64,000 bases of DNA from Candidatus Multivorans sp. (GCA_965205095.1 OZ242040.1:640553-704552), one strand, 5' to 3'. Counted from the stretch's first letter, positions 17,673 to 25,820 are shown. The notes: a model not told the origin generated them from the letters alone. Numbers and translations are program-made.

Positions 17673-18172
17673 ACCGCCGCCGCCTGGCCCTGGCCGCCGT
17701 CGTCGTGGCCGTCCTCGTCCCCCTCGGAGGTCTCCTCTGGTTCGAGTCCGGAATCCGCGCCCGGCAGGCACAGCGCCCGGAAGTCGGGGCGACGTTCCCC
17801 GCGCTGCCGGGCTTCGCGGACGGCGAGACCCTGCCGGCCGCTCCGGGACGGCTGCGGGTAGTCACGTTCGCCAGGGCCGGCTGCGGCAACTGCGACCGCA
17901 CCATCACCACCCTGCGCCGCCTGAACCGAACCGAAGATCCGACCTTCGACCTGATCGCGGTCGTCGCCGGCGCCCATGAGCCGGAAACGAACGGCGACGG
18001 CCTTCTCGCCATCGCCGACCCGGACGCCTCCGTCTCGAGGCGCTTCGGAGTGGTCCACGTGCCGCTCGTGTTCCTGGTCGACGAGCAGTCCCGGATCCTT
18101 GCAGTCGCCACCGGCGAACGTCCGGAGACCGCCTGGCGCGCCTTCCTGGAGTCCGGAACCGATGCGCTCTGA
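17669..18172 (+). CDS. Membrane-anchored thioredoxin-fold (TlpA/AhpC-like) thiol-disulfide oxidoreductase
   Basis: MNRRR plus TM anchor; VGATFP, CGNC active site, cis-Pro region GVVHVPLVFLVD. Confidence 0.8.
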   Translation: MNRRRLALAAVVVAVLVPLGGLLWFESGIRARQAQRPEVGATFPALPGFADGETLPAAPGRLRVVTFARAGCGNCDRTITTLRRLNRTEDPTFDLIAVVAGAHEPETNGDGLLAIADPDASVSRRFGVVHVPLVFLVDEQSRILAVATGERPETAWRAFLESGTDAL

Positions 18173-18764
18173 GCGATTCCGGATCCGTCCCCCGCACGCG
18201 GCGGCCGCCGGCCTGCTGGTTGCCGCCGGTCTCGTGACGGTCGCTGCCCGGACGCTGGGGCCGACCATGGACCGGCTCGCCTGGGCCGCCGCGCTCGACC
18301 CATCGGCGCCCGCCCCGGGCGAGGTGGTCCGCCAGCAAAGGCGCTCCGACTGCGGTCCGGCGGCCCTGAAGATGGTCCTGGACCACTGGGGCATCCAGGA
18401 CGTGACGCTCGCCGAGCTCGAGATCGCGACCGGAACCGGACCGGACGGCACCAGCCTCCTGGCGCTCAAGAAAGCCGCCGAGGAACGGGGCGTGACGAGC
18501 CAGGGGCTCCGGCTTCCGGTCCATCGGCTCCGCGAGATCCCGCTCCCCGCGATCGCCCACGTCCACGGCGACCACTTCGTCGTCATCCGCAGCACCGGCG
18601 ACGAACTCGTCATCGACGACCCCTCTCTCGGCCGGCTGCGCATGAGCTCCCGCGTCTTCGCCCGCTCCTGGGACGGGGTCGTTCTGAGCTTCACCGGCGG
18701 CCCTCCACCGATTCCGCGGACGGTACGAACCCCGTCCGTTTCACCCGCAACCTACAACCCTTGA
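18162..18764 (+). CDS. Stand-alone C39 family cysteine peptidase with N-terminal hydrophobic segment
   Basis: RQQRRSDCGPAALKM (Q, C), GTSLLAL, LPAIAH, HFVV (H), DDPSLG (D), FARSWDG; no ABC domain. Confidence 0.92.
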   Translation: MRSERFRIRPPHAAAAGLLVAAGLVTVAARTLGPTMDRLAWAAALDPSAPAPGEVVRQQRRSDCGPAALKMVLDHWGIQDVTLAELEIATGTGPDGTSLLALKKAAEERGVTSQGLRLPVHRLREIPLPAIAHVHGDHFVVIRSTGDELVIDDPSLGRLRMSSRVFARSWDGVVLSFTGGPPPIPRTVRTPSVSPATYNP

Positions 18765-18779
18765 AGGAGATACTCCTCT

Positions 18780-19106
18780 ATGAAACTCCGCGTTCTGTTT
18801 GTTTCCGCCCTCTTCCTGTTCCTCGCCGGAGCGGCACTGGCGACACCGACCGTCGGCGAACCGACCGTCCCCGACGAAGCCGAACTCCTGACCGCCTGGG
18901 ATCTGGAATCGCTTGCAGGCCCGACTTCGGCCGACTACTCGCTCGCCCCGCCGGTCGTCCCGCCCGAACCCACCGAGCTGGCGGTCTACTCGCCCTGCGG
19001 TTGCACGCCGATTCCCGGTTGTCCGTTCCCGATTCCCTGGCCCTCACCCGGCCCCACGTTCCCGTTCCCGCTGCCCGGTCCGTGCACGTGTCCGCTGCCG
19101 TTCTAG
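18780..19106 (+). CDS. Secreted Pro/Cys-rich precursor peptide P1
   Basis: AAGGAG RBS; Sec signal (..GAALA); leader-like LTAWDLESLAGP; Pro-rich C-terminus with 5 Cys. Confidence 0.8.
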   Translation: MKLRVLFVSALFLFLAGAALATPTVGEPTVPDEAELLTAWDLESLAGPTSADYSLAPPVVPPEPTELAVYSPCGCTPIPGCPFPIPWPSPGPTFPFPLPGPCTCPLPF

Positions 19107-19143
19107 TGCAGATGACACGCACATCTTCCGAAGGAGGACCGAC

Positions 19144-19320
19144 ATGAACACCACCTCAACCCTGATCGCGATCCTGCCCGAGGCCGACCTCGCGGCCGTC
19201 ACCGGCGGAAACGACTGGGTCGTCTCGGCGGCTTGCTGGGCGGCAGCGGTCTTCGTCGACGCCTTCTTTCCAGGCCTGGGTGCCCTGGTCTCCCTTTCCT
19301 GCCAGACCCCCGTCATCTGA
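19144..19320 (+). CDS. Double-glycine-leader bacteriocin-like precursor P2 (58 aa)
   Basis: AGGAGG RBS; leader MNTTSTLIAILPEADLAAVTGG; hydrophobic 36-aa core with 2 Cys. Confidence 0.85.
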   Translation: MNTTSTLIAILPEADLAAVTGGNDWVVSAACWAAAVFVDAFFPGLGALVSLSCQTPVI

Positions 19321-19371
19321 AACCACCACGAACGACTCATTCACATCTGAACCCCAAAAGGAACTTCACTC

Positions 19372-19692
19372 ATGACAAAGACCCTTCTAGCCGTTGCGGC
19401 GGGCGCTGCGCTGTCGGTCAGCGCAGCCGTTCCGCCACCTGATTCCCTTTCTCGCTCGCCCGTGGACTCCGAGCTGCGCACAGCAGCGACCGTTCACGAG
19501 CCTGCCATCGACCTCGGTCCGCCCTCCCTGCCCAACCAGGTTCTGGCGCAGACAGTGGGAACGGGTTCCACTTCCGACTTCCTCTGCGGAGCCGCCGCAG
19601 GAGCCGGTTTCGCCCTGACGCTGAGCGGCGTCGGGGCGATCCCCGGCGCACTGCTGGGCGGCGCCGGCATGGCCTGCGCCATGTTCTTCTGA
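19372..19692 (+). CDS. Bacteriocin-like precursor P3 (signal peptide + pro-region + Gly-rich core)
   Basis: AAGGA RBS; signal-like N-terminus; LPNQVLAQTVGTG leader-like motif; core STSDFLCGAAAGAG...GMACAMFF. Confidence 0.8.
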   Translation: MTKTLLAVAAGAALSVSAAVPPPDSLSRSPVDSELRTAATVHEPAIDLGPPSLPNQVLAQTVGTGSTSDFLCGAAAGAGFALTLSGVGAIPGALLGGAGMACAMFF

Positions 19693-19763
19693 GCTCAGCC
19701 ACTCGGCACAGCCAGTCAGTCAATCAATCAACCCAAACCACTTGATCCTCGAAAGGAAACGAT

Positions 19764-20060
19764 ATGTCCAAGAAAGCACTAGCCACAGTTCTCCTCATCA
19801 CTCTCGGCTTCGCCATCGCTCCAACGGCAGGGGCCAGCAGCCCTCCCGACTTTCCGGTCCCGGACGGCGGCGACCCGGCCGAGGCCGAGCAAGTCGGTGA
19901 ACTCGTCCTCGCGACGGCGACCGGCGGAACAAACTGGAGCTGCGTCGGCGCCGTCCTCGGCTTCAGTTTCACAGCTCTCGCAGCCGGCGCTGCGACCGGC
20001 GGCGTCGGTCTTGCCATCGTCGGAGCCTACGCGCCAGTTGCCCTCGTCCTTTGCTCCTAA
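19764..20060 (+). CDS. Bacteriocin-like precursor P4 (signal peptide + GG leader + core)
   Basis: AAGGA RBS; Sec signal (..TAGA); VGELVLATATGG; 43-aa hydrophobic core TNWSC...LCS. Confidence 0.85.
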   Translation: MSKKALATVLLITLGFAIAPTAGASSPPDFPVPDGGDPAEAEQVGELVLATATGGTNWSCVGAVLGFSFTALAAGAATGGVGLAIVGAYAPVALVLCS

Positions 20061-20197
20061 GCCCCTTCTTCAAACCCAGTAGACCACGTCAATAGAGAGT
20101 TCGATGGCCACGAAGAAGTCAGGAGCCCTGCCCAACCCATCGGGTCGACCTCCCACGTCTCCTGCGTGGCCATCGTCTCTCTACTCCGCAGAGATGT

Positions 20198-20227
20198 TTG
20201 ACGGACGCCATCCCGGCGCGCTAGCGT
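20198..20227 (+). promoter_or_regulatory. Sigma70-like promoter of structured element copy 1
   Basis: TTGACG-N18-TAGCGT; a homologous promoter is at 24460. Confidence 0.6.
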
Positions 20228-20233
20228 CCGCCC

Positions 20234-20369
20234 GTTGGTTGTCAGAGGCGCAGTGGGCCTGCGAGCCGGACCCCCTGCCATGCTTGGCCAGTGCCCCTGG
20301 GCCTAGGGTCGCTCCCTTCGTCAGGCGAAGCGGTGGGGGGTCTCGTCGCTCCTCTGCAAGGCGGCCAGC
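20234..20369 (+). ncRNA. Putative structured ncRNA, copy 1 (family not recognised)
   Basis: Rod-like pairing by eye; apical GGGTCGCTCCC; colinear homolog at 24495-24629 with base-pair-preserving differences. Confidence 0.6.
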
Positions 20370-20438
20370 GCGGTCCGCCGCCAGTCCTGGTGTCGGCCTT
20401 CCCCATCGCGAGAGCCGGACAGTGACCCCGAGGACTCC

Positions 20439-22025
20439 ATGGCCAGGTTGACTGTGCACGGAAGCCGGGCCGACCGGCTGCTGACCCTGGCACGGCTGGT
20501 GTTGCCGGACGCCATTCGGCGGGCCAACCAGCCATTGGCGGTGGTGGTTCTGGTCGCCATCCTGTTCTTCGTGTTCGCGACCGTCGCGACCCTGGGGTTG
20601 CTTCCGGCGATGTTTGCCATCGAGAGTGACGCACTGCGGAGAAACCTCCTGAGCCTGATCGCCTGCTCCGTGACGACGATCGCGCTGCTCGCCCAGGTGA
20701 CGCTTCGAGCGCCGGTTACCTGGCTGCTCGACCTGGAGGACCTGCTGCGGCTGCCCGTCGGCTTCCGGGACCTGTACGGGCTTCGGTTCGCTCTCAGCAC
20801 GATCGGGTACTGGCTCCCCGTTCTCGGTCCCGCCGGCGTCTACCTCACCGTCATGAGGTCGGGAGGTCTCAGCGGAGTGCCGGTCACCCTGCTGGGCATT
20901 CTTAGCCTGGTCTGGATCTTCGGCCGTACGGCGGCGATCCTGTCTCTTCTCGTCGACCGCTCGGTCGAAGGTGGGCTCGGCACACTGGCCATGGTGGTGA
21001 TCATGGCGGCCTGCCAGGGCGCGATTCTCTTCGGATCGCTGGCGTTCGGCGGCGAACTCGATTCCGAAGCGATCATTGGGGCGATTGAGGAGTCCGCCGT
21101 TCTCGGCGGCCTCGGCTACACGCCCCCCGGCCTCGTCGTCGGCATCGTCCACCAACCGGGGCCTTCGTTGCCGAATCTGGCGAGACTGGGCGGCCTGATG
21201 ATCGTTCTCGGCGCCCTGGTCGCGCTCGAGAACCGGCTCCTCCTTCGTAGCTACGTAGAACGTCCTGGCGGTGACCGCCGAGTCGCTTCCGGTGTGCTTC
21301 CTCTGGTCCGAACGCTCCGAAGATCCCGCCGTCTCACTCCCATGGCCACCCTTACGGTCCTCGAAACCGAATGCCTGTTGCGCCTCAAACCGGCAAGGTT
21401 AGTTCTGGCGATCGCGGTCGCCTTCGCCCTGGTCTGGTTACCTGCCTTCGCCGGTCTCGCCGTCGGTGTGGCCGGGCTCTTTGGACTTGCGCTTCATGGC
21501 TTCCGGGTGGAGAAGCAGCCATCGACCTGCTACGTATGGAGGGAATCGCTCGGCCTGCCCTTCACCGTCCCCCAGGTGTTTCGCGCAACCGGCCGTGCGC
21601 CCAGCGTGATCAGCGTCGTCGTTCTTGCTTTCATCCTGAGTCTGACGCCGCTCGACTGGTTCGGCTGGAGCTTCTTCCTGGCCGCGTCCTGCCTGATGCT
21701 CAGCGGCCTCCTCCTGGCCGGAGCCGCATACGGCCTGATCCAGGTCCACTGGCCCCAACGCAGTGCCGGCCCGAGCCACGAGACGAATGCCGCGAAGTTC
21801 GCGGCGTCACTCCTGTTGCCGCAGATCGCCTTCGCTCCAGTACTCCTCTCCTTCACTCTGTACATCCTGTACGAGCGCGAACGTCTCAGCGCTTCTACCG
21901 TCGGCCTCGTCGCGGCAGCAGTCCTCCTCCTCGCTGCCGGGGCCGCGTACGCGTCTCGTCGAAGGCAAAGACAGATGCTGAAAGCCCGGGGCCGCGAACT
22001 CCTCCTCGGAGACCCTTCCCACTAG
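20439..22025 (+). CDS. Multi-pass membrane protein, putative ABC exporter permease
   Basis: About 12 TM segments; LLRLPV motif; directly upstream of an ABC ATPase. Confidence 0.75.
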   Translation: MARLTVHGSRADRLLTLARLVLPDAIRRANQPLAVVVLVAILFFVFATVATLGLLPAMFAIESDALRRNLLSLIACSVTTIALLAQVTLRAPVTWLLDLEDLLRLPVGFRDLYGLRFALSTIGYWLPVLGPAGVYLTVMRSGGLSGVPVTLLGILSLVWIFGRTAAILSLLVDRSVEGGLGTLAMVVIMAACQGAILFGSLAFGGELDSEAIIGAIEESAVLGGLGYTPPGLVVGIVHQPGPSLPNLARLGGLMIVLGALVALENRLLLRSYVERPGGDRRVASGVLPLVRTLRRSRRLTPMATLTVLETECLLRLKPARLVLAIAVAFALVWLPAFAGLAVGVAGLFGLALHGFRVEKQPSTCYVWRESLGLPFTVPQVFRATGRAPSVISVVVLAFILSLTPLDWFGWSFFLAASCLMLSGLLLAGAAYGLIQVHWPQRSAGPSHETNAAKFAASLLLPQIAFAPVLLSFTLYILYERERLSASTVGLVAAAVLLLAAGAAYASRRRQRQMLKARGRELLLGDPSH

Positions 22026-22077
22026 CCCCTGCCCTACAACCCCCTCTGCCCCTACAACCACAAGGAACACCTCACGG

Positions 22078-22866
22078 ATGGAAGAAGCAATCAAGGCAGA
22101 GAACCTGACCCGGTCGTACGGAGGAAACGTCGTCGTCGACGGCGTCGACCTGGACGTCCGGGAGGGCCAGATCCTGGGTTTCGTCGGCCCCAACGGGGCC
22201 GGCAAGACGACGACCTGGTCGATGTTGACCGGAGTCTTGCAACCGACGAAGGGAACGGTGCGGCTGCTCGGCAAGCCGATGGACATCAACGACACCGAGC
22301 TCAAGCAGGAACTCGGCATCGTGCCCGATCACAGCGTGATGTTCGAGAGCCTGACCGGCGAGGAACTGCTGCTGTCGTATGCCCGCATCTATGGCCTGGG
22401 CCGCGAGGACGCCGGGCAGCGGACCGACGAGGCGCTCGCGGTGTTCGACCTCGAGGACGCCGCCAAGCGGCCGATCACGACCTACTCCCACGGCATGAGG
22501 AAGAAGATCCGCCTGGCCGCGGCGACCCTTCACGGTCCGCGAATCCTGTTCCTCGACGAGCCGTTCGAGGGGATGGACGCCCTGAGCGCCCGCACCGTCA
22601 TGTCGATCCTGCAGCAGATGGCCGAGCAGGGGGCAGCCATCTTCCTCACTTCCCACATGCTCGACTACGTCGAGCGCGTGTCGACCCACATCGCCGTCAT
22701 CAGGGACGGCAAGGTCCTTCTTTCGTGCTCCCGCGAGGAGTTCCGCGAACTGCCCGCCGCCGAGGGAGAAGACGGCGCCGGCCGGCTCGAGAACCTCATT
22801 CTCAGCATCTCCAGGCGCGAGAGGTTCTCCCGCCTCTCCTGGATCGGCAACAGGAGCACGACATGA
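22078..22866 (+). CDS. ABC transporter ATP-binding protein (ABC-2/drug export type)
   Basis: GPNGAGKTT, YSHGMRKK, LFLDEP, LTSH. Confidence 0.95.
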   Translation: MEEAIKAENLTRSYGGNVVVDGVDLDVREGQILGFVGPNGAGKTTTWSMLTGVLQPTKGTVRLLGKPMDINDTELKQELGIVPDHSVMFESLTGEELLLSYARIYGLGREDAGQRTDEALAVFDLEDAAKRPITTYSHGMRKKIRLAAATLHGPRILFLDEPFEGMDALSARTVMSILQQMAEQGAAIFLTSHMLDYVERVSTHIAVIRDGKVLLSCSREEFRELPAAEGEDGAGRLENLILSISRRERFSRLSWIGNRSTT

Positions 22867-23642
22867 CCGAGCATCCAGGCAGCACCCAAGGCGAACGCCA
22901 CGCCAAGACCAGCGGCGACGACTCACCGGGCCGGAACGCCTGGCTCACGGCGCTGGTCGGGCTCTTCGCGTCGCCGCGGCGGAGCCTCGAGATCATCCGG
23001 AACCGCAACCCATGGCTCGCAACGCTGCTCCTGGTCCTGGCCGGAAACGCCGCCCTGGCCCTGGCCTCCGCGCCGCTGGGTCTCCAGGCCATGCGGGCTC
23101 AACTGACGGAACGGATGCCTGGCAGCCCCGAACAGGTCGACGCCATGATGGCGCAGTTCGAACAGGCAGCCGCGGCAGGGCGTTGGCTGGCGATGGCCAC
23201 CGGCCCCCTCTCCGTGGCCGTCGGACTCGCGATTCAGACCGTCCTCGTGTGGCTGCTGGCGACCGCGCTCCAGGGACGGCTCCGATTCGTCCAGTCCCTC
23301 GCCCTGATGATCCACCTGGCCGTGATCACTCATCTCCAGGGCTGGGCCAACTTCCTTCTCGTTCACCTCCGCGGCAGCGACGCGATCCGCTCGCAACTGG
23401 ACCTCCGGGCGCCGATAGGACTCGACCTGCTGCTGGCCGGCGACAACGCGACGCTCAACGCCGTCTACGCGAGCATCAACCCGTTCACGATCTGGTTTCT
23501 CTCGCTGCTCGCCCTGGGCGCTGCCGCCGTGTTCGAGATCCCGCAGCGCAAGGCCTGGCTGCTGGCCGCCATCTACTGGGCAGCGACGACGGCCTTCACC
23601 GCCGTGGCGGCCGGTCTCTTTGCCCGGCTCACACCGAGCTGA
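22863..23642 (+). CDS. Yip1 domain membrane protein
   Basis: LFASPRRSLEIIR..PW, five TM segments, SINPFTIW..LLALG; ATGA overlap with the ATPase gene. Confidence 0.8.
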   Translation: MTEHPGSTQGERHAKTSGDDSPGRNAWLTALVGLFASPRRSLEIIRNRNPWLATLLLVLAGNAALALASAPLGLQAMRAQLTERMPGSPEQVDAMMAQFEQAAAAGRWLAMATGPLSVAVGLAIQTVLVWLLATALQGRLRFVQSLALMIHLAVITHLQGWANFLLVHLRGSDAIRSQLDLRAPIGLDLLLAGDNATLNAVYASINPFTIWFLSLLALGAAAVFEIPQRKAWLLAAIYWAATTAFTAVAAGLFARLTPS

Positions 23643-23687
23643 CCCGGCCGGCGACCCGGTTCGATCCCGCGTCGATACACTCCCCTC

Positions 23688-24386
23688 ATGGGCGAAGAAC
23701 CGGAGGCGAGCGGCCACCTCCGGTTCAAGGCCCTGATCTGGATCTTCACCGCTCCGCGGAAGAGCTTCGTCGTCATTCGCGAGCACCACCCGTGGGTCGC
23801 CGGCCTGGCCGTGGGCAGCTTCCTGATCGTCCTGGCCCTTCTGCTGAACGCATGGTGGTTCGGCGATGCCATGGGAAGCATCGGCGAGCCCCTCGAGATT
23901 CCCTACGGGATGGTCTCGTTCGTCCTGGCGGCCGTCCCGCTCACGCTCCTGTTCGAGGCCGCCGTGCTTCGGCTCCTGGCGGCGGCCATGAAGGGTCGGG
24001 CGCGGTTCGAGCAGTGCCTGTCGCTGGCGCTGCATGTCGGCCTCGTCGGCGCCGTGGGAGTGGTCGTCCGCTCGCTGTTGAGAACCACCCAGGTCGACAG
24101 CCTCCTCGAGCTGCAGCGGAGCGTCCTCGACAGGAAACCGGATTCCGGCCTCGACGTGATCGGGCAGGTAGCCGAAATGGCGCCCGGCGCGATTCTCGAC
24201 CTGATGATCCACTCCTTCGTCTTCATATGGTCCTTCCTCCTGCTCGGCCTGGGCGCCGCCGCGGTGTTCCGGCTGTCCCTACCAGCCGGGTTCGCCATCG
24301 CCGCGATCAACTGGGTGGCAGGAAAGGTGTTGGAGATCGGTTTGGCGGGCCTGATGATCGCGGCGGTGACGGCATCCTTCCCCTGA
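23688..24386 (+). CDS. Yip1 domain membrane protein (paralog)
   Basis: IFTAPRKSFVVIR..PW, GRARFEQCLSLALH, FIWSFLLLGLGAAAVF; aligns by eye with the preceding gene. Confidence 0.8.
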   Translation: MGEEPEASGHLRFKALIWIFTAPRKSFVVIREHHPWVAGLAVGSFLIVLALLLNAWWFGDAMGSIGEPLEIPYGMVSFVLAAVPLTLLFEAAVLRLLAAAMKGRARFEQCLSLALHVGLVGAVGVVVRSLLRTTQVDSLLELQRSVLDRKPDSGLDVIGQVAEMAPGAILDLMIHSFVFIWSFLLLGLGAAAVFRLSLPAGFAIAAINWVAGKVLEIGLAGLMIAAVTASFP

Positions 24387-24459
24387 CCGCGACGCGGCCA
24401 GGCGGCAGTTTTCGCCTCAGCGTTCGTCTCGGCCGCCGCCCCACAGATGGTCGAGTCGT

Positions 24460-24488
24460 TTGACGGACAATCGACCGCGCGGTAGCTT
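24460..24488 (+). promoter_or_regulatory. Sigma70-like promoter of structured element copy 2
   Basis: TTGACG-N17-TAGCTT. Confidence 0.65.
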
Positions 24489-24494
24489 CTCGCC

Positions 24495-24629
24495 GTTGGT
24501 TGTCGTCGCGCCGTGGGCCTGCGAGCCGGGTCTCCTGCCGAATACAACAGTCGACACCAGGCGCCGGGTCGCTCCCGGCGCTCGGCGAATAGGCAGGGCG
24601 TTTCGTGCCCACTGTGCATGGCGACCAAC
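24495..24629 (+). ncRNA. Putative structured ncRNA, copy 2
   Basis: GTTGGTTGTC/GGCGACCAAC closing stem, GTGGGC/GCCCAC, CCTGCC/GGCAGG, apical hairpin GCGCCGGG-TCGCT-CCCGGCGC. Confidence 0.65.
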
Positions 24630-24719
24630 AAGGCCCGGCGCCAACTCTCTCTGCCGGCCTCGGCCGCGGCATGCTGGTATAACGGTGGCACCAACCGGCT
24701 ATCGATGAGGGGAGAAACC

Positions 24720-25820
24720 ATGCCGAGCAGAGTTACTCTCGCTGCCGCCACCGCCGCGGCCGTCGCCTTCCTGGCGGTACCCGCTGCGCCTGCCGCCGAC
24801 GACGACGCGATCCCGCGCACGGCCTCAGGCCGTCCCGACCTGACCGGCGACTACGAGATCTCCACGCTGACCCCGTTGCAGCGACCTCAGGAGTTCGGCG
24901 ACAACCTGTACCTGACGCCCGAGCAGGCGGAAGAGATCGCCGAACGGGAGCGCCAGCGCGTAGCGGCACGCGCCGCCGTCCGCCGGATCGACGAACCGCC
25001 CCCGCCCGGCGGCGCGCCGCCCATCGGCCTCGGCGACGAGTTCCGGGAGACGAGCGGGGCCGGCAACGTCGGCGGCTACAACAACTTCTGGACGGATCGC
25101 GGCAGCGACGTGTTCTCGATCGACGGCAGGTTCCGGACCTCGATCATCGTCGATCCGCCGAACGGCCGGATGCCGCAACTGACCGCCGAGACGCTGCAGA
25201 GGATGTCCGAGCGCCGCGGTCGCCGGCGGGGCAACGACGGCACGGCCTGGTGGCTCGAGGTCGAGGGCCCCGGTCCGTACGACGGCCCCGAAAACCTGGG
25301 CGTCCCCGAACGCTGCCTGATCGGCTTCGGCTCCACCGGCGGACCTCCGATGCTGCCCGTGCTCTACAACAACGCCAAGCGGATCGTGCAGACCGAAGAC
25401 CACCTGATGATCCTGGTCGAGATGGTGCACGACGCGCGCATCGTCCGCATCGGCGGCGAGCACGTCCCGAAAGACGAGCGCCGCTGGCTCGGCGACTCGA
25501 TCGGCTGGTGGGAGGGCGACACACTCGTGGTCGAAACGACGAACTTCATCGACCGCCCGGCGCTCTTCCTGGCCTCACGGAACCTCAAGGTGACCGAGCG
25601 CTTCACACGGGTCAACGCGGACGACCTGCTCTACGCGTTCACGGTCGAGGACCCGACCGTGTGGAGCGCGCCCTGGAGCGGCGAGTACCTGTGGCCCGGC
25701 ACGCCCGCCAAGGTCTACGAGTACGCCTGCCACGAGGGGAACTACGCCATGGGCAACATCCTCAGGGGCGCGCGGCTGCTCGAGGACGAGACCCGCGGCG
25801 CGGCCAGCGGCGGCCAGTAG
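24720..25820 (+). CDS. Secreted hypothetical protein (PRT..G.PDL.G family)
   Basis: Signal peptide; IPRTASGRPDLTG, DPPNGRMP, ERC, GDSIGWWEGDTLVVETTNF, YEYACHEGNY; TGGTATAAC extended -10 upstream. Confidence 0.85.
   Translation: MPSRVTLAAATAAAVAFLAVPAAPAADDDAIPRTASGRPDLTGDYEISTLTPLQRPQEFGDNLYLTPEQAEEIAERERQRVAARAAVRRIDEPPPPGGAPPIGLGDEFRETSGAGNVGGYNNFWTDRGSDVFSIDGRFRTSIIVDPPNGRMPQLTAETLQRMSERRGRRRGNDGTAWWLEVEGPGPYDGPENLGVPERCLIGFGSTGGPPMLPVLYNNAKRIVQTEDHLMILVEMVHDARIVRIGGEHVPKDERRWLGDSIGWWEGDTLVVETTNFIDRPALFLASRNLKVTERFTRVNADDLLYAFTVEDPTVWSAPWSGEYLWPGTPAKVYEYACHEGNYAMGNILRGARLLEDETRGAASGGQ

Follow-up and report, generated by a model that had tools for sequence, protein, structure and literature searches.

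Two stretches of DNA from an uncultured acidobacterial genus are probably leaders that act in cis as translational RNA switches, riboswitch candidates belonging to a lineage-specific family. Both lie in the 64,000-nucleotide (nt) piece of the Candidatus Multivorans sp. genome that we analysed (GCA_965205095.1, OZ242040.1:640553-704552; 'the window', in which positions are counted from the first letter), and we refer to them as copy 1 and copy 2 (Table 1). Three of the features by which riboswitches are recognised were found together here: a conserved, structured aptamer with covariation, a location in the predicted 5' untranslated leader, and mutually exclusive structures in the expression platform, where the tail of the element pairs either with a junction strand or with a strand further downstream, both pairings covarying and having matched energies.

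Structure and competing pairings of the element

A preliminary description made from the window alone had reported two homologous elements of ~135 nt, each behind TTGACG and TAGC(G/T)T boxes, and when we read both stretches the elements and their boxes were in place. With the promoter included, the copies align colinearly over 213 columns (82% mean column identity); both contain the blocks GTTGGTTGTC, GTGGGCCTGCGAGCCGG, CCTGCC, GGGTCGCTCCC and GGCGAA, and both have the closing stem formed by the 5' and 3' ends as well as the inner stem, which is CCTGCC/GGCAGG in copy 2 and ACCCCCTGCC/GGTGGGGGGT in copy 1. In a BLAST search of the whole genome (5.11 Mb) with copy 2 as the query, the best non-self match was copy 1 (E 6.2e-12, 70% identity over 183 nt). 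Two parts of the description needed amending. Both ~135-nt stretches are real, and the 3' tail just beyond each of them belongs to the element. The elements had also been called rod-shaped, and copy 2 alone does fold as a long rod (-75.3 kcal/mol, z score -4.95, with 0 of 200 shuffles as good); the rod does not accommodate the pairing of the junction strand with the 3' tail, nor the tail's second, exclusive partner.

The family element spans ~155 nt, to which a platform of ~30 nt is added. Helices P1 and P2 together make a stem of ~20 base pairs (bp) whose sequence varies from copy to copy, and inside it a conserved junction strand of 9 nt (J, GYCGGGUCN) lies 5' of P3 (consensus CCYGCC/GGCRGG). 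Beyond P3 comes an internal loop of high conservation, each strand of which contains GAAUA (GAAUACAASA opposite YGAAUA), followed by P4 and by a variable hairpin, P5, whose loop is often U(A/C)GCU and which is swapped for unrelated hairpins in several copies (L224, L229, L231, L234, L236 and L174). The tail, NGGCCCGRC, begins 0–2 nt after the 3' arm of the stem; among 87 non-redundant copies the linker had this length in 79, and the median stem was 20 bp. The most conserved nucleotides of the family are the unpaired ones in the internal loop, J and the tail. In copy 2 both strands of the internal loop (24540–24549 and 24587–24591) open with GAAUA, and the 5' strand has AGUA in some copies. Copy 1 represents a variant found across the genus (type B), in which the internal loop is altered and an extended P3 engulfs part of J: the loop reads AUGCUUGGCC.. 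/ CGAAGC in copy 1 and AGACCUAGCC.. / CGAGUC in most copy-1 orthologues, against GAAUACAACA / CGAAUA in the main type.

That this is a structured RNA family whose pairing is kept despite sequence change, as the preliminary description had proposed, is borne out by its homologues, in which 88–93% of cells are paired (28–52% when the strands are slid) and compensatory changes occur in 13–23 of 28 pairs. These figures cover the core helices and the J:tail pseudoknot, and come from three alignments: A5, made from sequence only with MAFFT, and A6 and A10, fitted to the covariance model, the last of them drawn from a second, metagenome set that was chosen by a pattern on two loop sequences. A5 (36 copies) had 88.4% of cells paired versus 34–52% slid, with changes on both sides in 13 of the 28 pairs; A6 (75 copies) had 90.5% versus 31–51%, with 23 such pairs; and A10 (44 distinct copies) had 92.9% versus 28–51%, with 14. 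In each alignment, 0 of 500 shuffles reached the observed value. Type B copies explain the 13–15 unpaired cells at the second pseudoknot pair. The pair between the last base of J and the first base of the tail (J9:t1), which exists only in the pseudoknot, occurred as GC 36, AU 6, CG 6, UA 3 and GU 3 in A6, and as GC 20, AU 10, UA 3, CG 2 and GU 2 in A10. For the closing stem we duplexed every 5' arm with its own 3' arm and with those of the other copies. Native P1/P2 arms reached -31.5 kcal/mol versus -20.9 for swapped arms in the first set and -28.1 versus -13.6 in the second, in which the native arm was the best partner in 29 of 37 copies and among the top three in all 37.

The 3' tail has two partners, J, with which it forms the pseudoknot, and the sequence directly downstream, with which it forms a hairpin that we call H6 (consensus CCGRCNCC, loop AAUYCN, GGNGYCGG). 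In an ungapped alignment of 36 copies, 84.1% of H6 cells pair versus 33–43% when slid, and both variable pairs of the hairpin covary (GC 13, AU 10, GU 6; and AU 9, GC 7, UA 6), one of the covarying positions being the same tail base that covaries with J. Because the pseudoknot and H6 share the tail, they cannot coexist, and over the 36 copies they are matched in strength (-15.0 +/- 2.3 versus -17.0 +/- 3.0 kcal/mol); in copy 2 itself, the tail plus 22 nt folds at -14.5 kcal/mol, versus -17.2 for the pseudoknot duplex.

The 3' arm of the closing stem also has a potential second partner. In about one third of copies it is complementary to the segment of its own gene that runs from the Shine-Dalgarno sequence to the AUG, with matches of up to 11–13 bp in, for example, L067, L051, L070, L216 and L062. 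When ribosome-binding regions were ranked as partners of each 3' arm, the native one was in the top three for 11 of 28 copies, and for 10 of 31 in the second set (~3 expected by chance); the 5' arm showed no enrichment for its own ribosome-binding region, which reached the top three in 3 of 28 and 3 of 31.

Predicted promoters, downstream genes and distribution of the family

Both copies are preceded by a conserved TTGACG-N17/18-TAGCKT. GTTTGACGG plus TAGCGT is kept 5' of copy-1 orthologues, and the copy-2 pair is kept in copy-2 orthologues. A generic sigma-70 scan of 19900–24900 returned 0 promoter-like sites, so the promoter claim at both copies rests on conservation and not on a textbook consensus. 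The proposed start close to a conserved -10 box agrees with the wider family, in which a TANNNT box lies upstream of 67 of 75 copies, mostly 12 nt before the start of the model and with a TG extension in 32; P1 begins at the predicted 5' end.

Every leader examined is on the same strand as its downstream gene. A start codon lies at +20 to +40 in 36 of the 60 copies with a called open reading frame (ORF) and at +18 to +51 in 39 of 43 metagenome copies; outside the window pair, most loci have it 25–36 nt after the element. The spacing is +46 to +51 in 10 of the 12 listed copy-1 orthologues and +70 to +122 in 6 of the 10 listed copy-2 orthologues, and of the other four of these, three have start picks that are ORFs of 52–58 amino acids (aa), probably not the gene. 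A survey of neighbouring genes, which the preliminary description had suggested, found mostly signal-peptide proteins, lipoproteins and metzincin proteases downstream. The first set includes Reprolysin-like metzincins (5 loci), an M48-PDZ lipoprotein, CARDB and CsgG-like proteins; the metagenome set includes two matrixins, an astacin, TraT, an RTX protein, fn3, a secreted nuclease and a TbpB-like lipoprotein; and many downstream proteins match no family. A crude rule assigned a signal-peptide-like N terminus to 25 of 37 and 31 of 39 downstream proteins in the two sets, 4 and 17 of which, respectively, also have a lipobox-like cysteine. Among the roles that had been considered for the element, 'leader' fits best.

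Searching with nhmmer found 62 instances in 42 sources, and the covariance model (R1) found four copies in the element's own genome (160.2, 107.6, 106.8 and 59.6 bits). One of the two outside the window stands 28 nt upstream of a gene for a secreted metzincin (HEVGHTLGLAH), and the other, which the BLAST search of the genome had also picked up, precedes a 127-aa ORF with a signal peptide (L003 1472-2936; G000:C1 ~1633978-1635440). The ORF continues into an IS3-family transposase gene of opposite orientation, whose insertion may have truncated the regulated gene. With the two further copies elsewhere in the genome, and well over 100 more in relatives and metagenomes before unrelated genes, the link to the window's peptide locus that had been drawn earlier does not hold.

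Among 41 other genomes of the genus, a family-level search found 1–10 copies per genome in 40. The exception, G011, also lacks orthologues of both downstream genes in the window and so cannot show whether the leader is dispensable. No copy was found in 15 genomes of 12 sister genera searched with the covariance model under Infernal's stricter filters; a class-wide draw, also with these filters, found the motif in 19 of 20 genomes of the genus and in 0 of 130 genomes of 66 other genera. BLAST matches of 29–42 nt outside the genus (G039, G051 and G057) were taken as chance; the covariance model missed G039 and G051, and G057 was in neither covariance-model search. On metagenome contigs, a loop-based pattern picked out 74 loci, 68 of which the model confirmed, with 71 hits and 49 unique cores.

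Some genomes carry repeated copies. In G024:C1, three loci (L064, L065 and L066, at ~1968308, 1572568 and 245467) are near-identical and consist of the leader plus an M48-PDZ lipoprotein gene, and in G027 leader copies occur in duplicate and triplicate; both cases look like recent segmental duplications. Tandem elements 20–50 nt apart were seen at L222 307-648, L223 471-810 and L226 307-667; every element has a TGCTAnnnT-like box to itself, and the 5' strands of P1 are alike (GUGAAUCGC). In each tandem the first element is without the usual NCCAAU after the tail and has no ORF behind it.

The family matches no known one. Rfam 15 gave 0 matches over the whole window at gathering thresholds, none on either element in 19900–25000 at E values up to 10, and none on the element at 16 further loci at E values up to 5, in agreement with the absence of a family assignment in the preliminary description. 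The one weak hit nearby, to PA5194_thermometer in L205 (23.6 bits, threshold 60, E 1.5), falls downstream of the element and was taken as chance. In the literature searched, supplementary files aside, we found no publication on the motif or on 'Candidatus Multivorans'. The family is an undescribed one of structured cis-regulatory leaders, an orphan riboswitch candidate.

A candidate translational switch and its rivals

As a switch, the element could work as follows. Each leader would be transcribed from its own promoter, with its start at the first base of the closing stem or close to it, and in the default state P1, P2 and H6 would be formed and the ribosome-binding region free. With only 0–2 nt between a 20-bp stem and the tail, we infer from helical geometry that a closed P1 precludes the pseudoknot. 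Any signal stabilising the latter would force P1 open, upon which the freed 3' strand of P1 would pair with the ribosome-binding region and turn translation off, and the 5' end, having lost its protective stem, would be exposed to decay. Because the full stem is far stronger than the pairing of its 3' arm with the ribosome-binding region, the latter would matter only if P1 is actively opened; the pseudoknot, the signal and the 3'-arm pairing together are of about the same order in energy as P1 plus H6. The polarity, off on signal, is a best guess only, and the opposite polarity may hold instead. Because the conservation is aptamer-like, with unpaired core nucleotides most conserved and stems that covary, the signal is most likely a metabolite or second messenger. 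The regulon would consist of secreted proteases, lipoproteins, adhesin-like proteins and the bacteriocin-type export module.

Several points weigh against this account, every regulatory step of which is inferred. The sole ground for holding P1 and the pseudoknot to be mutually exclusive is helical geometry, and both could form if the stem bent sharply at the P1/P2 internal loop. Blocking J and the tail in 36 copies, as a mimic of the pseudoknot, gave no consistent change in the accessibility of the Shine-Dalgarno sequence and AUG (mean unpaired probability 0.41 when blocked versus 0.40, up in 4 of 36 copies and down in 4) and so favours neither polarity, and only about a third of copies have a 3' arm specifically complementary to their own ribosome-binding region. 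Copy 1 on its own folds no better than shuffles (-70.4 kcal/mol, z score -1.45, 15 of 200 shuffles as good), the type B pseudoknot has two mismatches, and in copy 1 its duplex is weaker (-11.3 kcal/mol). A6 and A10, being fitted to the model, lean towards its structure, as A5 does not, and because the second set was selected by loop pattern, it says nothing independent about those loops. Finally, for a metabolite sensor the range in which the family was found, a single genus, is narrow, and a protein partner specific to the lineage would explain it as well.

This last point bears on a tentative alternative, which keeps the same leader and helices and changes the input: a lineage-specific RNA-binding protein or a trans-acting RNA would act at the GAAUA/GAAUA loop or the U(A/C)GCU loop, or there would be no input and the element would be a constitutive 5' stabiliser or translation tuner. 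Besides the restriction to one genus, a bound partner would suit the conserved internal loop next to P3, which seems to resemble a loop-E or sarcin-ricin type module; such modules are often sites of protein binding or tertiary contact. No candidate protein turned up, no systematic search having been made, and the P5 loop is not a recognition site that every copy needs, since several carry unrelated hairpins in its place. A constitutive role would be in keeping with P1 at the predicted 5' end, as in protective 5' stem-loops, and with accessibility modelling that gave no consistent switch; two exclusive, matched and covarying helices are hard to explain in a purely constitutive element.

The spacer behind copy 2 raises the question of whether at least this copy is a free-standing small RNA, its transcript ending after the tail or H6 and the gene using a promoter of its own, which we consider improbable. 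In copy-2 orthologues the spacer is long (start codon at +70 to +122 in 6 of 10, as listed above) and contains extra GC-rich hairpins, the extended -10-like box that had been noted earlier is indeed present in it (Table 1), and TGCTGGTATAAC, also in the spacer, is unchanged in 5 of 10 aligned orthologues (alignment A7), has one substitution in a sixth and has diverged in a seventh; judged on sequence, TGCTGGTATAAC may act as a second promoter or belong to a longer expression platform. Some tandem first elements (L222, L223 and L226) likewise lack an ORF behind them. Three metatranscriptome runs contain small parts of the window as assembled contigs, which carry neither ends nor strand: a 195-nt contig of run X1 equals 20244–20438 with 0 differences, and a 190-nt contig of run X2 covers 24457–24645 with 3. 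These cover each copy as separate short pieces, as a small RNA would predict, and they say only that the region occurs in RNA libraries, where DNA carry-over is possible; such contigs cannot show RNA ends, and the X2 piece begins 38 nt 5' of the predicted start. The window scan found no terminator-like site at the end of either element, and at most other loci the start codon within 25–36 nt leaves no room for a terminator and a second promoter. The copy number, four here and as many as 10 in a genome, and the tailoring of each copy to its gene also speak against a small RNA.

The same holds for the 6S-like decoy that had been among the suggested roles. 6S RNA is free-standing, ~180 nt long and usually encoded once per genome, and its central bubble mimics an open promoter. 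Copy 2 alone resembles it in forming a long rod that is mostly double-stranded and has an internal bubble. Unlike 6S RNA, the element occurs in many copies, each a short, fixed distance before a start codon, its bubble strand pairs with the 3' tail, and no Rfam 6S model matched; the suggestion is not supported.

H6, a GC-rich hairpin of 7–11 bp that arises from the tail and competes with the pseudoknot, could in principle be a terminator whose formation the pseudoknot prevents, making the element a transcription attenuator. This is very improbable, and we rejected an intrinsic-terminator attenuator: the copies read have no U-tract or T run after H6, the terminator scan was negative at 20375–20400 and 24631–24665, with no terminator-like site at the 3' end of either element, and the Shine-Dalgarno sequence lies within a few nucleotides of H6.

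Least probable of all is a dispersed mobile repeat without function at the RNA level, either a promoter-carrying cassette or a sequence like a miniature inverted-repeat transposable element (MITE) or a repetitive extragenic palindromic (REP) sequence, in spite of several copies per genome, an IS3-family transposase gene adjoining the third copy of this genome, and identical copies in G024 and G027. REP and MITE repeats are numerous and near-identical, lie in either orientation and keep no set position relative to genes. We rejected this type because there are four copies here, with orientation and start-codon distance fixed, all copies examined facing a same-strand gene, and with closing stems wholly different yet complementary, which argues for selection on RNA pairing and not for recent copying; the identical G024 copies bring their whole downstream gene along, and no terminal inverted repeats or target duplications were noticed, though these were not searched for systematically.

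Surroundings, related systems and meaning

The window around the two copies is a bacteriocin-type processing, export and immunity cluster (Table 1). The 528-aa membrane protein behind copy 1 belongs to no Pfam or NCBIfam family, and the two Yip1/YknW-like proteins match NCBIfam YknW_fam at 6.8e-18 and 2.8e-07, both under the cut-off. The 366-aa secreted protein behind copy 2 has no match in Pfam, NCBIfam or PDB, and its Atlas neighbours are unnamed. It has motifs such as CHEGNYAM and IGWWEGDT and falls in a large unnamed family, with 21 matches in one genome of the genus and relatives at 50–65% identity in Acidobacteriota and marine Gammaproteobacteria. We rejected the leader as a feature of this protein family, since only 7 of 80 homologous loci carry it, all of them close orthologues.

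Table 1. Positions of the two leader copies, their parts and the neighbouring genes in the window
Feature	Position	Strand	Remarks
SNF2-family helicase, 1263 aa	13431-17222		locus neighbour
C39 peptidase-domain protein	17976-18764
Small ORFs	~19140-20060		double-glycine leaders in two: ..LAAVTGG/NDWVV.. (inside 18913-19320) and ..ATGG/TNWSC.. (19764-20060)
Glycine/alanine-rich small ORF	19372-19692
Copy 1 promoter-like pair	20198-20203 and 20222-20227	+	TTGACG, 18-nt spacer, TAGCGT, then G at 20234
Copy 1	20234-20389	+	variant (type B) family member; R1 106.8 bits
Copy 1 P1	20234-20243 with 20360-20369	+
Copy 1 J	20265-20273	+
Copy 1 extended P3	20270-20279 with 20332-20341	+
Copy 1 P5 loop	20309-20313	+	TCGCT
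Copy 1 3' tail	20371-20379	+
Copy 1 H6	20375-20396	+	CCGCCGCC, loop AGUCCU, GGUGUCGG; tail plus 22 nt folds at -13.7 kcal/mol
Shine-Dalgarno sequence	20430-20434	+	GAGGA
528-aa membrane-protein gene	20439 (ATG) to 22025	+	first gene behind copy 1
ABC ATPase	22078-22866	+	Pfam ABC_tran 1.3e-30
Yip1/YknW-like membrane protein	22725-23642 (ORF)	+	Pfam Yip1 1.4e-09
Yip1/YknW-like membrane protein	23688-24386	+	Pfam Yip1 6.7e-11
Copy 2 promoter-like pair	24460-24465 and 24483-24488	+	TTGACG, 17-nt spacer, TAGCTT, then G at 24495
Copy 2	24495-24649	+	canonical (type A) family member; R1 160.2 bits
Copy 2 P1	24495-24506 with 24618-24629	+
Copy 2 P2	24508-24518 with 24607-24617	+
Copy 2 J	24525-24533	+
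Copy 2 P3	24534-24539 with 24592-24597	+
Copy 2 internal loop	24540-24549 and 24587-24591	+	GAAUACAACA and GAAUA
Copy 2 P4	24550-24553 with 24583-24586	+
Copy 2 P5	24560-24568 with 24574-24582	+	loop UCGCU
Copy 2 3' tail	24631-24639	+	followed by GCCA 24640-24643
Copy 2 H6	24631-24660	+	tail AGGCCCGGC (24631-24639) with GCCGGCCU (24653-24660)
Extended -10-like box	24675-24683	+	TGGTATAAC; between copy 2 and its gene
Shine-Dalgarno sequence	24708-24714	+	AGGGGAG
366-aa secreted-protein gene	24720 (ATG) to 25820	+	behind copy 2
Acidobacterial VWA-domain protein, 630 aa	27253-29145		locus neighbour; TIGR03436, 1.8e-33

Read as a translational switch, the element has its closest relatives in design among several known riboswitches. 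SAM-II, preQ1-II and c-di-GMP-II are translational riboswitches built on an H-type pseudoknot, and the element shares with them a 3' tail that pairs back into the aptamer junction, a conserved unpaired core with covarying helices, and a position directly upstream of the ribosome-binding site. It differs from them in having no Rfam match, in being much longer with a variable closing stem of ~20 bp, and in that its tail has a dedicated competitor hairpin and does not itself hold the Shine-Dalgarno sequence. The add adenine riboswitch of Vibrio vulnificus is also translational, and the 3' strand of its P1 can pair with the Shine-Dalgarno/AUG region instead; our element resembles it in that its closing helix has a 3' strand complementary to the translation start region, in competition with the 5' strand, and differs in its aptamer fold, in complementarity that is clear in only about a third of copies and in an extra competing pair (the pseudoknot and H6). 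The c-di-GMP-I/II (GEMM) regulons of Clostridioides difficile and Geobacter resemble ours in their many copies per genome before unrelated genes for secreted metalloproteases and for adhesin-like and surface proteins without an assigned function; the likeness is in the regulon only, as the Rfam models do not match. The element also resembles the orphan riboswitch candidates and cis-regulatory leader motifs known from comparative genomics (PMC2864571, PMC8632094), in being found by comparison and in being intergenic, GC-rich, covarying and upstream of genes, and differs from them in its absence from the Rfam 15 families and its confinement to one uncultured acidobacterial genus.

A bolder version of the switch, which we think unlikely as a whole, would make the family a new riboswitch class that senses a second messenger, for example a cyclic dinucleotide, in the pseudo-symmetric GAAUA/GAAUA pocket. 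It would switch the exoproteome of sponge- and coral-associated Acidobacteria (metzincin proteases, surface lipoproteins and the bacteriocin export/immunity module) as one regulon, and copy 1, a type B copy with a changed pocket, would be a specificity variant for a second ligand.

If the family is a switch of the kind we favour, it would add a structured cis-regulatory RNA class with >100 distinct representatives in a phylum that has few known ones. It would mark a set of co-regulated secreted and surface proteins, mostly without an assigned function, in an uncultured symbiont lineage, and would reveal post-transcriptional control that is otherwise invisible there, with the RNA itself offering a direct handle for ligand screening in vitro. 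The closing stem, tailored for each gene to the ribosome-binding region, would be a natural example of modular switch design.

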